Sequence record: OL362041.1 | DNA: 64,000 nt | Strand: one strand, 5' to 3' | Origin: Escherichia phage vB_Eco_OMNI12 | Program-made: the position numbers and the translations under genes | In this document: piece by piece, positions 29,783-33,750 of the stretch | How the letters are laid out: the number at the start of each line of letters is the position of its first letter | Position numbering within the stretch: the first letter of the stretch is position 1 | The notes under the pieces: generated by a model | Told to the model about the DNA's origin: nothing | Databases searched by the model: none | What the model saw: the letters and a program-made list of their open reading frames with translations, nothing else

Positions 29783-29972
29783 ACGTTTTCCATGGTAAAG
29801 GCAGTTTAGTTTTCTTTACTACTAGTTCAACATCAGGATTCTTTTCTCTTAATTTAAGGCATTCCTCCCATGCTCTATTTTCACTAGTAAATACACAAAA
29901 TTGCCCATTACTAGTACCAACTAAACCGCTATTTACAATAACAATAGCCCAAGTTTCATGGTGCCAAGCCAT
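29775..29972 (-). CDS. Hypothetical protein (65 aa from internal ATG)
   Basis: ATG overlaps the pseT stop by one base (TAATG). Confidence 0.4.
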   Translation of the reverse strand: MAWHHETWAIVIVNSGLVGTSNGQFCVFTSENRAWEECLKLREKNPDVELVVKKTKLPLPWKTYE

Positions 29973-30877
29973 TAAAAATCTCCCGAAGCGACTTGCCAGC
30001 ATTCAACACCGATGCGGCGCCACATTTCAACTACTTGAGTTCGGTCATCAATAGCTAATTTCACATCAAAATGTGGTGCGATGTGTTTCCAGAAAATTTC
30101 TTCTTTAACTACATCATCTTTACGGGTATCGCCTTGTTCGCGTTGACACTGCATGACTAATGGAACACCAGCAATGTCCTCAACCCATTTACGGGTCATA
30201 CGATAATATTTCGTTGGATCTTCTTCGGTTCCACTTTCACGGCCTGAAACGACTACGATTTGATAACCCATAAGAGCATACATCTTGGATAGTTCAACGA
30301 CCATTGGATTAATAATATCGGTATCGCATTTTTCAAGGTCATAAGGACCACGACCATTCATTTTTGCTAACGTGCCATCAACATCAAAAATAACTGCTTT
30401 TGGTTTACCAGGAGTCCCTTTATATACCGGAAGACCGAGATACTCTCGCATGCTTTTATACATTGAGCGTAAAACATCAATTGGTACTGCTTTAGTTCCG
30501 CGTTTTGAGTTGCGTTTAACCAATTCAGTCCAAGGAACATCAAACACTTTATGTTCAATTTGATGCCCAAGCTCTTTGGCAAACTCTTCCCAAACCTTAC
30601 GTCGTTCAGGATTCAGATTAGTATCTGAAACAATTACACCCTTCGTTGCGTCTTGGCAGAGAATCATGTTAGCAACATCATGCTGCATGTAAGTTACGAT
30701 ACCTTCTTTATTTTTGGTATACTTGTACTCATCGCGTTCTTCATGTGCCATAATAGATTGGCGATAGTCATCACGATTGATATTATAAAACCCTGGATTT
30801 TTAGCAATAAATTCACGAGCCCAAGTACTCTTACCAGAACCAGGACAGCCAATAGTCAAAATAATCTTTTTCATCAT
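29972..30877 (-). CDS. pseT: Polynucleotide 5'-kinase / 3'-phosphatase
   Basis: 301 aa; P-loop GCPGSGKST in kinase domain and DVDGT (DxDGT) in phosphatase domain. Confidence 0.9.
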
Positions 30878-31194
30878 TTAATTCCTAAGAAAACTTCAAG
30901 AATACGAATATTGTGCTCACGCCGTCCTTTGTACAATTCAGCTGTTGATTGATTCGCTGATTTACTCTGAACATTAGATGAAATAAATTTTATCATGTGA
31001 TTTTTAAGCTGATACATATCAAGCCCACGAGCTTTCGCTTCTTTTCGCAGGGCTTTACCAGCATCATCTAAAGCTTTAGCAGGGTCTTCATCATTTAATA
31101 CTATTCCACGATCCAAATCCATGTATACTGCACCATGACATGCATCAATGTAAAGGTCTGAGCATTCAATATAACGTTCTAGCAGAGTTTTCAT
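30874..31194 (-). CDS. Hypothetical protein
   Basis: 106 aa ORF. Confidence 0.5.
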
Positions 31195-31421
31195 TTATTT
31201 TTCTCAACTAATGATTGAATATAATCATGCAGGTCTTTAGATGCTTTACCCCACTTATTTTGATATTCATTTTTGAGATTAGCACGGGATTGAGCTAATA
31301 AAACATCATTAGTTGGAGGTAAAGATTCTAACCGCTGAATCTGGCGTCCATAAATCATTGCAGCCATCTCGGATTCATAAATCAATCCTTTGAGATGTTC
31401 AAATTGATGCCATGAAATCAT
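31191..31421 (-). CDS. Hypothetical protein
   Basis: 76 aa ORF. Confidence 0.5.
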   Translation of the reverse strand: MISWHQFEHLKGLIYESEMAAMIYGRQIQRLESLPPTNDVLLAQSRANLKNEYQNKWGKASKDLHDYIQSLVEKNK

Positions 31422-31717
31422 TTACATTTATCCTCTTTTAACTCTTGACGATAATAACATATCATAGTTTTTTGGTCATGTACATATCGTTTTACATCAT
31501 TAAGCCAAATACGAAATTCCTGAGAATCTTCAAATGGCATACCGACCCAAGCTTTACCATCAATAACTTTAACTTGCCAAGATAGTTTAGCTTCATCATA
31601 TGACTTTATCTGTACAGGCCAATTAGGATGAACTGTTTCTTTCTTTACTTCTAGAGGCTTTGTCGAACAACCAGCTAGAAGACCGATAGATAATATTACT
31701 GCTGATAGTCTAATCAT
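31418..31717 (-). CDS. Outer-membrane spanin (Rz1-like lipoprotein)
   Basis: Signal peptide with lipobox LLAGC near the N-terminus; follows the i-spanin gene. Confidence 0.65.
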   Translation of the reverse strand: MIRLSAVILSIGLLAGCSTKPLEVKKETVHPNWPVQIKSYDEAKLSWQVKVIDGKAWVGMPFEDSQEFRIWLNDVKRYVHDQKTMICYYRQELKEDKCK

Positions 31718-32067
31718 TTAGAAAGGTCCTGGATGTCTTCTGCGAACTTGTTGAAGGAGTTGTTGATTTGTTTTTCAACCAATCCTGGCTTACGAGCCAC
31801 CACATCCGCCTTCTTTGCATCTTTGCGCAGTTTTTCATTTTCACGCTCAATAGCAGCAATCGCCTCACGATTTTTATTATTCATCGCATCAATATAATTA
31901 TACTGAATTCGCAAATTATTTAATGCTAAGGCGTTTTCATTGGCCGTTTTTGTAATTTCTACAACAGACGTTTCTAATCTTTCAATTTTATTTTTTAAAA
32001 TTAAAGAAGTTCCGCCTAATGCAATTACAATTAATAGCAAACCTGCTGTCGTATTACTTAATTGCAT
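31714..32067 (-). CDS. Inner-membrane spanin (Rz-like)
   Basis: N-terminal transmembrane segment then charged coiled-coil region, 117 aa. Confidence 0.65.
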   Translation of the reverse strand: MQLSNTTAGLLLIVIALGGTSLILKNKIERLETSVVEITKTANENALALNNLRIQYNYIDAMNNKNREAIAAIERENEKLRKDAKKADVVARKPGLVEKQINNSFNKFAEDIQDLSK

Positions 32068-32564
32068 AAAGTTTTAATAACCTCTATAATATCGTCTTGA
32101 GAAAGACCGTTAATTAAAATATGATGTTCAGCCGGAGATTTAGAAATTTTAAAGCATGCCTCAACATCTTCTGCCATATCCGATGCACTACGATTTGGAT
32201 TACTAATTCCAAGACGATGCTTTCCAGTCAAAGGATTAACGATGATATAGCATTTACAACTATTGATATGAACATTAGGTTGAGTCTGATTAATAAATAC
32301 ATCACAATCATATTTCGCAAGCTGATTTTCTAAAAAGACTTTCATCTCTTCAACCGCATCAGGAAGCATATCACGGGCTTGCTCAAGACGACGATTTCGA
32401 TATTCTTTAATGGTCGTTTTCCGCTTGACTTGCTTAGCTAAATCTTTCTTAAGATCGGTGATATATCCAACTCGACGGTTTCCTTTAAATACAGAAATCC
32501 CATCTGTAGTATCACCGTATGCTTCAACGACCATTTCAGTAGTAATGAGCTGCAAATCCATCAT
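32058..32564 (-). CDS. alc: Alc-like inhibitor of host transcription
   Basis: 168 aa, position between rnlA and the spanins as in T4. Confidence 0.65.
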   Translation of the reverse strand: MMDLQLITTEMVVEAYGDTTDGISVFKGNRRVGYITDLKKDLAKQVKRKTTIKEYRNRRLEQARDMLPDAVEEMKVFLENQLAKYDCDVFINQTQPNVHINSCKCYIIVNPLTGKHRLGISNPNRSASDMAEDVEACFKISKSPAEHHILINGLSQDDIIEVIKTLCN

Positions 32565-32592
32565 AAAGTCCTCATGTTATGTCAGTAAGACT

Positions 32593-32621
32593 ACTGTAAC
32601 ACAACACGAGGGACTTGTAAA
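32593..32621 (-). promoter_or_regulatory. Early promoter (TTTACA-N17-TACAGT)
   Basis: Near-identical ~55 bp copy of the element at 16622-16676. Confidence 0.6.
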
Positions 32622-32625
32622 CAGC

Positions 32626-33750
32626 TTAGTATCCTTCTGGGATAAATTTTTTATAATTTTTCAAAAAATTCTGTTCGATTTCACACATAACCTTCTCTTG
32701 ACTATCATACCCCTGGTATAAGCTCATGATGATACCGAACAAGTGATCCATTCCAGCACCTTTAGCAACACCTTGTGCTTCCATTGCATAAGTCTTTCTA
32801 TCTTTACCACAATGCTTATTGTGACAGTCAAGAACTAAAAACAGAGCTCGGTCTAAGTACTTCAGATAAGTCGTTTCAAACGCCTCAATTTTTCTGTATG
32901 AATATTCATCGTCAGCGTACATTGCTTTAAGATCATCTGATGCACCGTCAATAATAGTCTTAAACAATTTTTCTGGATTATCTAATGAACTTTTTGTACT
33001 ATGAAGAGACACATACCAGTCAGACTTAATTTTAAAATGAGAACCATCTTTCATCACAGCAACATAGCCTTCGATGTTTTCTGCATTTTTAGCTTCTTCT
33101 ACCCATTTAGGGCTATCGATTTCGAATCGTTCAACTAGATATGGACGAAGAGCAGCATCTTTATAAATATCATCGTATGAAATGTATTCACCCGTTTCGT
33201 TTTCACGAACATTCAGTAAAATAATTTTCATTTCTTGGTAAGCAAGAACGATTCTATTCGTCGGAGCAACGAATTCGAAGTTAGCAGTAAATCCATCTTC
33301 AGCTAATTCTTTAAGTCTATCGCGCAACCGATGGTGATTAATATTCATCAAAATCCCATTAGCCATTAAAGCCTGCTCAGATTTGATTGAACCCTTTGAT
33401 TTGAACAGAATTTCATCACCATCTAAATAAGTTGATACCAAAGACCCGTCTTCTTTTGTTAGAATGTAATCAACATCATTTAAATCGATATTCATCGTGA
33501 ATGGATTTTCATTCAAGTTAAAAAACTTTTCCATAGGACGAGAGGCAATTCTTACCGGTTTTTCTCCATCCATTTCAAACATAATTCCACGACATTCTAA
33601 TGCGTCTGGAAGTAACCAATCAGAATAAGATGCATAATTATATGAGAAAATTCTGTAAGTTCTTCCAGACGCACTTACATCATCCGAGTAAAAAAACTTA
33701 CGCTGTGAATCCTTACATAGTTCCATTAAATTGTTAAAAAGTTCTTGCAT
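32626..33750 (-). CDS. rnlA: RNA ligase 1
   Basis: Start at internal ATG ([14 protein letters not shown]...), 374 aa; adenylation motif TKEDGSL. Confidence 0.85.

Follow-up and report, generated by a model that had tools for sequence, protein, structure and literature searches.

Does Escherichia phage vB_Eco_OMNI12 carry a complete and intact set of genes for repairing tRNA cut by the host anticodon nuclease PrrC, and do these genes lie together as one toolkit? We addressed both questions in a stretch of 64,000 nucleotides (sequence record OL362041.1; hereafter the window), which is collinear with phage T4 (NC_000866, 105,686-168,903) at ~91-98% nucleotide identity over most blocks. A sequence-only reading of this DNA had held that pseT, rnlA, rnlB and stp are all present and intact, and had flagged 29972-33750 as a complete toolkit, while placing rnlB and stp outside it. 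We consider it very probable, by analogy with T4, that the window is a Tequatrovirus (T4-like) segment running from gene 23/24 to rIIB, with orthologues of all four genes, and that the Stp/PrrC/Pnkp/Rnl1 mechanism known from T4 would apply to it.

The window itself demonstrates the presence and intactness of the four genes, their near-identity to T4, and the conservation of catalytic residues and gene order. All four lie on the minus strand as uninterrupted reading frames (Table 1), with no frameshifts or internal stops, and their products share 92-100% amino-acid identity with those of T4. Frameshifts and inactivating motif substitutions, which had been named as grounds for abandoning the claim of intactness, were sought by alignment to T4 and neither was found. 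Gene order follows T4 (cd.5-pseT ... alc-rnlA-denA; ac-stp-ndd), the start codons are of T4 type, each with a Shine-Dalgarno sequence in front, and 100% of the catalytic or essential residues checked in Pnkp, Rnl1 and Rnl2 are the same as in T4. Specific Pfam models were matched by all four proteins, including the C-terminal specificity domains of both ligases and PF08133 for Stp. The matches of the predicted products to their T4 counterparts are far beyond chance.

Table 1 Features of the window, with identity of their products to T4
Feature	Position	Strand	Length (aa)	Product or assignment	Identical residues
rnlB (gene 24.1)	2222-3226	-	334	RNA ligase 2 (Rnl2), seals duplex-RNA nicks; intact	329/334 (T4 RefSeq)
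pseT	29972-30877	-	301	Bifunctional polynucleotide 5'-kinase / 3'-phosphatase (Pnkp), end-healing enzyme	279/302 (NP_049834)
106-aa ORF	30874-31194	-	106	RB32ORF217c / RB69ORF231c family, phrog_2364	absent from T4
pseT.1	31191-31421	-		Conserved hypothetical, phrog_2347; outside RNA repair	75/76 (PseT.1)
pseT.2	31418-31717	-		Rz-like spanin (lysis), T4 and HP3 annotation	96/99
pseT.3	31714-32067	-		Rz-like spanin (lysis), T4 and HP3 annotation	107/117
alc	32058-32564	-		Inhibitor of host transcription on cytosine-containing DNA	163/168 (Alc)
rnlA (gene 63)	32626-33750	-	374	RNA ligase 1 (Rnl1), seals tRNA anticodon loop	371/374
stp	60152-60232	-	26	Inhibits type Ic restriction (EcoprrI), thereby activates latent PrrC	26/26 (NP_049878)

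The idea of one contiguous toolkit did not survive. The span 29972-33750 holds eight genes, with RNA repair confined to its two ends (pseT and rnlA) and the other six unrelated to it; those named in between are the 106-aa ORF, pseT.1, pseT.2, pseT.3 and alc. Neither pseT.2, pseT.3 nor alc is part of RNA repair, and alc matches its own Pfam model (PF17527 ALC, 1.4e-91). Across 29500-34400, a simple scan limited to sigma-70-like promoters found 16 sites against 19.6 expected from shuffled sequence, and terminator-like sites numbered 3 against 2.6 expected. Because the sigma-70 scan was no richer than shuffled sequence, expression is read here only through conservation with T4. Whole-window scans for tRNA genes and for Rfam RNA elements both came back empty, so within the window neither kind of feature is tied to the toolkit.

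The healing enzyme, Pnkp, matches T4 polynucleotide kinase (PDB 1LTQ, E=3e-192) and differs from it at 23 positions, indels included, with no internal stops; its length in Table 1 is counted from the first of two neighbouring ATGs (MMKK...). The Pfam models HAD_PNKP (1.2e-59, 143/143 profile positions) and AAA_33 (1.9e-24) were both recovered. A GCPGSGKS P-loop (GxxGxGKS) places the N-terminal domain among the kinases, and an FDVDGT motif (DxDxT) places the C-terminal domain among the acylphosphatases. Kinase residues G9, G12, G14, K15, S16, D35, R38, E57, Q64, D85, R126, V131, P132 and V135 are the same as in T4, in which Lys15, Ser16, Asp35, Arg38, Asp85 and Arg126, together with Glu57, are among the essential ones (PMC2831316). 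The same holds for phosphatase residues D165, D167, T169, R176, S211, R213, D254, K258, D277 and D278; in T4, Asp165 is the nucleophile, Asp167 the acid-base catalyst and Asp278 a metal ligand, with Ser211 and Lys258 also required (PMC3592404).

The sealing enzyme, Rnl1, is still closer to T4 RNA ligase 1 (PDB 2C5U, E=2.9e-254), with T200A, Y209F and I217V as its only differences. An all-helical C-terminal domain of the Rnl1 type is linked to tRNA anticodon-loop specificity; here this domain (residues 253-374) carries no substitutions relative to T4 and matches T4_Rnl1_C over its full profile (1.7e-39, 122/122 positions), alongside RNA_lig_T4_1 (2.9e-25). R54, K75, F77, K99-E-D-G102, S118-K119, E159, E227-G-Y-V-A231 and H238-F-K-I-K242 are all as in T4, and nucleotidyltransferase motifs I, Ia, IV and V are kept in full. 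We take these motifs to be I (K99EDG), Ia (SK119), IV (EGYVA) and V (HFKIK242), with Lys99 the adenylylated residue (Wang, Ho, Pei & Shuman 2003). The earlier end coordinate for rnlA, 33750, was right: it is the T4 start ATG, preceded by a Shine-Dalgarno sequence (GAGG) at a distance of 7 nt. A GTG at 33786, offered as the start by a mechanical ORF list, was rejected. The T4 annotation describes the product of rnlA as "RNA ligase and tail fiber protein attachment catalyst".

Stp is recognized by PF08133 (Anticodon nuclease activator, E=2e-21) and by phrog_6763, and its gene keeps the T4 position between ac and ndd. The N-terminal 18 residues of Stp are needed for both EcoprrI inhibition and PrrC activation (PMC3014915). 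Stp had been cast both as the trigger of PrrC and as a member of the repair and counter-defence set; the first role stands and the second does not, since Stp inhibits EcoprrI and so switches PrrC on (PMC3014915). Owing to its shortness, the gene goes unannotated in some deposited relatives.

Repair of PrrC-cut tRNA by Pnkp and Rnl1 in the manner of T4, as first proposed, is supported by very close homology to experimentally characterized proteins of a described pathway (PMC3014915, PMC3884662). The sequences support a phage that encodes healing (Pnkp) and sealing (Rnl1) enzymes predicted to reverse PrrC cleavage of tRNA-Lys. Early in infection of prr+ E. coli, the 26-aa Stp would bind and inhibit the type Ic enzyme EcoprrI, and the associated PrrC would be unmasked. 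Pnkp would remove the cyclic phosphate with its DxDxT phosphatase domain, using Asp165 as nucleophile, and would phosphorylate the 5'-OH with its P-loop kinase domain; Rnl1, adenylylated on Lys99, would then reseal the anticodon loop and restore translation. The hallmarks of the exchange are restriction of pseT or rnlA mutants on prr+ hosts, its suppression by stp mutations, and tRNA-Lys fragments arising in the infected cell. What we infer from this likeness to T4 is activity, the timing of expression and the result of infecting prr+ hosts. The finding is already known and belongs to textbook T4 biology.

The arrangement is widespread: 544 phage records contain the pseT-rnlA cluster, and 548 contain the stp region. 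The closest relatives, Escherichia phages ES12 and ES26 (MN508614, MN508618), vB_EcoM-CHD16UKE1 (MZ234030) and HP3 (NC_041919), show 98.5-99.1% nucleotide identity over 29972-33786 and carry the same eight genes, the 106-aa ORF included; the stp region of vB_EcoM-CHD16UKE1 is 99.5% identical to that of the window. No record in the phage collection matched the pseT-rnlA or stp segments at 100%, so the window seems to represent a separate isolate within this group. In retaining the classic T4 pair of tRNA healing and sealing enzymes along with Stp, this Tequatrovirus follows the norm for the group; the finding matters little alone and is useful as annotation context.

The genes could also be kept mainly for other jobs, with protection from PrrC incidental in this phage. 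On such an account, rnlA (gp63) would be retained as the tail-fibre attachment catalyst that its T4 annotation also names, and pseT to phosphorylate the 5'-OH ends made by RegB, enabling RNases E and G to degrade early mRNAs; secondary cleavages of RegB-processed mRNAs do require Pnkp (PMC3014915). stp would be retained because its peptide counters type Ic restriction-modification systems, and Stp also inhibits EcoR124I, a case without anticodon nuclease (PMC3014915). In a transposon screen, moreover, the N-terminal domain of T4 rnlA was insertion-intolerant even on E. coli K-12 delta-RM (bioRxiv 10.1101/2025.11.20.689424). We nevertheless judge this account unlikely on balance. It is compatible with tRNA repair as the main explanation, the same T4 proteins being those that repair PrrC damage (PMC3884662, PMC3014915), and conservation extends to every catalytic residue of the ligases and the phosphatase and to the tRNA-specific C-terminal domain of Rnl1. 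The PseT orthologue of Bas37 was also among the most significant conditional fitness genes on a clinical E. coli isolate (bioRxiv 10.1101/2025.11.20.689424), an effect that fits a defence-related role.

The second ligase has a different standing from the Pnkp-Rnl1 pair. The rnlB product matches T4 Rnl2 (PDB 2HVQ, E=1e-224) and the Pfam models RNA_ligase (8.5e-23) and T4_Rnl2_C (1.3e-23), and K35, H37, R55, F65, F66, E99, F119, D120, E204, K209, K225 and K227 are the same as in T4. Its motif residues and C-terminal domain are those of the Rnl2 / RNA-editing-ligase family, whose hallmarks we take to be motif I (KxHGxN) with Lys35, Glu99, Phe119, Asp120, Glu204, Lys225 and Lys227 in motifs III, IIIa, IV and V, and the C-terminal domain (Ho & Shuman 2002; Yin et al. 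2003). The differences from T4 are C112G, A196V, L216M, R217P and T305A; L216M and R217P fall in a loop between motifs IV and V, and 56 phage records carry an identical version of the segment with residues 216/217.

The inclusion of rnlB in anti-PrrC repair by the sequence-only reading is not supported by the literature. What T4 Rnl2 does during infection is described as not known; its preferred substrate is nicked duplex RNA, whereas anticodon-loop specificity belongs to Rnl1 (PMC3884662). On prr+ hosts, T4 with a mutation in pnk or rli (rnlA) suffers restriction (PMC3014915), and because these mutants still have rnlB, Rnl2 is probably no substitute for Rnl1. The literature check yielded no participation of rnlB in repairing PrrC-cleaved tRNA, and a search for a newer anti-defence role found none. 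Rnl2 is an intact second ligase specialized for duplex-RNA nicks; it is not an established member of the PrrC pathway, and rnlB should not be filed under PrrC counter-defence. It serves as a reminder of an orphan enzyme without a known target.

That view of rnlB would change if the toolkit served general RNA-damage repair and were not specific to PrrC, in which case rnlB would gain a real anti-defence role. We find this doubtful: no rnlB target or phenotype is reported in the literature searched, in which phages are documented to evade other tRNases with replacement tRNAs and not through repair. Nothing in the window bears on the choice between PrrC-specific and general repair.

The locus departs from T4 in two small ways, a mosaic patch in the kinase domain of Pnkp and the extra 106-aa ORF. 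Both are frequent in T-even phages. The patch corresponds to T4 residues 55-107 (window ~30550-30700), where nucleotide identity to T4 is ~62-80% (31/50, 40/50 and 31/50 per block) against ~92-100% elsewhere in pseT. Here 19 differences cluster, some of them non-conservative; the changes include G62Y, F65H, Y73C, a 1-aa deletion of G74, Y103L and W105H. Residues E57, Q64 and D85, which the patch surrounds, are all untouched. T4-type Pnkp is a homotetramer with 5'-kinase and 2',3'-cyclic/3'-phosphatase activity on RNA ends; the patch could influence activity or tetramerisation. At an identity of at least 95%, the patch allele occurs in 127 phage records, for example RB27. That one gene is in frame but functionally dead, most plausibly pseT with a kinase disrupted by this divergent patch and deletion, so that the toolkit only looks complete, is exceedingly improbable: all known essential residues are kept, those within the patch included, the reading frame and phosphatase domain are essentially T4-like, and such recurrence, in 127 phages isolated independently, is what a functional recombinant allele would show and decay would not.

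The other departure, the 106-aa ORF, is the one element of the flagged span that T4 biology does not already account for. It coincides with a gap of 313 bp in the comparison with T4 and sits precisely at the junction of pseT.1 and pseT, overlapping each neighbour by 4 nt (ATGA), in the case of pseT at its start. It is encoded by 708 phage records and also stands directly upstream of pseT in distant Tevenvirinae. Searches of Pfam and PADLOC gave no matches; structure prediction gave a four-helix bundle (pLDDT 88), and the structural matches of this fold were only generic helical bundles. The ORF could encode an RNA-repair module accessory or a counter-defence factor lost by T4, which we regard as a long shot; if true, T4-only work would have concealed one component of T-even RNA repair or anti-tRNase biology. 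As a weaker variant of this idea, the alternative kinase-domain allele of Pnkp might reflect selection by a Pnkp-targeting host factor.

Set beside known systems, the window stays close to T4. Compared with T4 Rnl2 (2HVQ/1S68), rnlB is the same in length, domains, Lys35 and motif residues, and in its locus between gene 24 and 24.2, and it differs from the T4 RefSeq by five substitutions. Compared with the T4 confrontation of Stp and EcoprrI-PrrC with Pnkp and Rnl1, the same genes, positions, catalytic residues and domain architectures recur in a system that is known here from its genes alone; unlike in T4, it has an alternative mosaic allele of the Pnkp kinase and a 106-aa ORF wedged between pseT.1 and pseT.

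All four genes of the proposed RNA-repair and anti-anticodon-nuclease toolkit, pseT (encoding Pnkp), rnlA (Rnl1, gp63), rnlB (Rnl2) and stp (Stp), are present and intact where the sequence-only reading had placed them, as unbroken minus-strand open reading frames (ORFs) orthologous to T4 genes, with Pfam family assignments all over curated cut-offs. A mechanical ORF list had rnlA starting at a GTG at 33786, which we rejected; T4 rnlA begins at the ATG at 33750, and a GAGG Shine-Dalgarno sequence precedes that codon, so the earlier rnlA coordinate is correct. The rnlA product differs from T4 by T200A, Y209F and I217V, and Rnl2 substitutions include L216M/R217P, located between motifs IV and V in a segment with identical copies in 56 other phage records. 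For the stp region there are 548 matching records (top identity 99.5%). The same 26-aa peptide is encoded by Escherichia phage 107 (OQ599309.1, 1813-1893, minus strand), unannotated in the deposited record, and in several other relatives the stp position carries the label ‘hypothetical protein’ alone; annotation pipelines easily overlook such very short genes.

Features of the window discussed in the text
Feature	Position	Strand	Product (aa)	Family or structural match	Identical to T4	Setting
rnlB	2222-3226	minus	334	RNA_ligase, T4_Rnl2_C; PDB 2HVQ (E=1e-224)	329/334	
hoc	3811-5517	minus	568			
Alt-like gene	16675-18732	minus	685	ADPrib_exo_Tox		tandem pair
Alt-like gene	18736-20793	minus	685	ADPrib_exo_Tox		tandem pair
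175-aa ORF	28714-29241	minus	175	phrog_3710		between cd.2 and cd.3
pseT	29972-30877	minus	301	HAD_PNKP, AAA_33; PDB 1LTQ (E=3e-192)	279/302	
106-aa ORF	30874-31194	minus	106	phrog_2364 (RB32ORF217c, RB69ORF231c family)	no T4 counterpart	upstream of pseT
pseT.1	31191-31421					between pseT and rnlA
pseT.2, pseT.3	31418-32067			annotated Rz-like spanins		between pseT and rnlA
alc	32058-32564			ALC (1.4e-91)		between pseT and rnlA
rnlA	32626-33750	minus	374	RNA_lig_T4_1, T4_Rnl1_C; PDB 2C5U (E=2.9e-254)	371/374	
nrdB	34241-35419		392			
small ORF	39172-39519	minus		phrog_1928	not aligning	between td and frd
small ORF	40120-40365	minus		phrog_3183	not aligning	after frd
distal tail-fibre region (gene 37/38)	50686-54338					
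small ORF	58011-58238	minus		phrog_10955	not aligning	between motA and gene 52
stp	60152-60232	minus	26	Nuclease_act (PF08133)	26/26	

T4 residue numbers were transferred to the window proteins and each position compared, and no inactivating substitution was found in motif residues, all mapped positions of Pnkp, Rnl1 and Rnl2 being the same as in T4. These comprise R54, K75, F77, K99-EDG102, SK119, E159, EGYVA231 and HFKIK242 in Rnl1 and K35, H37, R55, F65, F66, E99, F119, D120, E204, K209, K225 and K227 in Rnl2, which we take to be the key positions from Shuman-laboratory mutagenesis papers. In Pnkp they comprise the kinase positions (essentiality, PMC2831316), namely the P-loop (G9/G12/G14/K15/S16), D35, R38, E57, Q64, D85, R126 and the acceptor-pocket residues V131, P132 and V135, and phosphatase residues D165, D167 and T169 (DxDxT motif), R176, S211, R213, D254, K258, D277 and D278 (roles of D165, D167, S211, K258 and D278, PMC3592404).

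Divergence in pseT is concentrated in a recombinant patch of the Pnkp kinase domain at T4 residues 55-107 (window ~30550-30700), where nucleotide identity to T4 falls to ~62-80%, against ~92-100% in the rest of the gene. The patch carries 19 amino-acid differences, including G62Y, F65H, Y73C, a one-residue deletion of G74, Y103L and W105H, yet E57, Q64 and D85, which it encloses, are spared. The same allele occurs at ≥95% identity in 127 phage records, for example RB27, and the T4/T6-type allele sits in the 60-80% identity band relative to it (n = 567 records). The patch is normal T-even mosaicism, not decay. Judged by sequence, all four genes look functional.

Because it is collinear with T4 (NC_000866, ~105,686-168,903), with 91-98% nucleotide identity in most blastn blocks, and its nearest records are T4-like phages, the window is part of the genome of a Tequatrovirus, the stretch between gene 23/24 and rIIB. 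The pseT-rnlA interval (29972-33750) matches 544 phage records, the nearest being the T4-like Escherichia phages ES12 and ES26 (99.1% identity), vB_EcoM-CHD16UKE1 (98.8%) and HP3 (98.5%). This 3.8-kb span does not hold up as a toolkit block: pseT and rnlA lie at its ends with other genes between them, and from alc through cd.5 consecutive genes are joined by 4- to 31-nt overlaps.

Directly upstream of pseT, a 313-bp insertion relative to T4 (30875-31187) supplies a 106-aa ORF whose start overlaps the pseT.1 stop and whose own stop shares 4 nt (ATGA) with the first pseT ATG, a junction that accounts for the MM start of pseT. A total of 708 phage records encode its family. In HP3, F2 and the distant Yersinia phage MHG19 it either adjoins pseT on the upstream side or is separated from it by one small ORF, which makes T4, where it is missing, the exception. 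Pfam and PADLOC searches returned no matches. The product is confidently predicted to form a four-helix bundle (pLDDT 88) with a disordered loop at residues 23-34, and fold searches returned just generic helical bundles or members of its own family. Position is the sole ground for tying this conserved ORF, the only loose thread of the finding, to RNA repair, and its membership of a repair or counter-defence module is very improbable.

Scans of the whole window found no tRNA genes and no Rfam families at the gathering threshold, and a simple promoter scan of 29500-34400 gave chance-level sites. The 175-aa ORF, within a 519-bp insertion relative to T4, had no Pfam or PADLOC matches. The hoc product exceeds that of T4 (376 aa) by extra tandem Ig/PKD-like domains derived from ~306-bp internal repeats. 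At blastn sensitivity no T4 alignment was found in the gene 37/38 region, the usual hypervariable host-range determinant.

In T4 (summarized in PMC3014915 and PMC3884662), binding of Stp to EcoprrI blocks restriction by that enzyme and unmasks the PrrC anticodon nuclease (PMC3014915), which cleaves tRNA-Lys on the 5' side of the wobble nucleotide (PMC3014915, PMC3884662); Pnkp then heals the broken ends and Rnl1 seals the anticodon loop. Stp also inhibits EcoR124I and not type Ia enzymes (PMC3014915). Hosts that are prr+ restrict T4 pnk (pseT) or rli (rnlA) mutants, and this restriction is suppressed by mutations in stp (PMC3014915). Given 92-100% identity to T4 and conserved active sites, we infer with high confidence that the same mechanism would operate in this phage, Stp blocking EcoprrI, PrrC being unmasked and tRNA-Lys being cut. 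The core of the PrrC-repair interpretation is thereby supported, with two amendments. Rnl2 was over-included: it prefers nicked duplexes (PMC3884662), and rnlA mutants are restricted (PMC3014915) though rnlB is still present, so Rnl2 presumably cannot substitute. Stp was mislabelled as an anti-nuclease tool, being the PrrC trigger and an anti-DNA-restriction factor. The literature searches brought up no newer anti-defence role for rnlB. Other roles are on record for pseT and rnlA: Pnkp allows RNase E/G decay of RegB-cut mRNAs (PMC3014915), gp63 catalyses tail-fibre attachment (T4 annotation, NC_000866), and in a transposon screen (bioRxiv 10.1101/2025.11.20.689424) the N-terminal domain of T4 rnlA tolerated no insertions even on K-12 and the Bas37 PseT orthologue ranked with the conditional fitness genes of highest significance in a clinical isolate.

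The window also departs from T4 elsewhere. T4 has one alt and two truncated remnants of a duplication, alt.-1 and alt.-2, whereas the window has two full-length Alt-like ADP-ribosyltransferase genes. The T4 mobile elements of the region, segD, segE, segG, mobE with nrdB.1, the nrdB intron (I-TevIII) and the td intron (I-TevI), are all absent, leaving element-free sites at ~836-897, 6244-6264, 34743-34744, 35419-35475, 38574-38579 and 42514-42550 and nrdB as one unbroken ORF. Taken as a whole, the finding describes biology that is already known, and the phage is an ordinary relative of T4.
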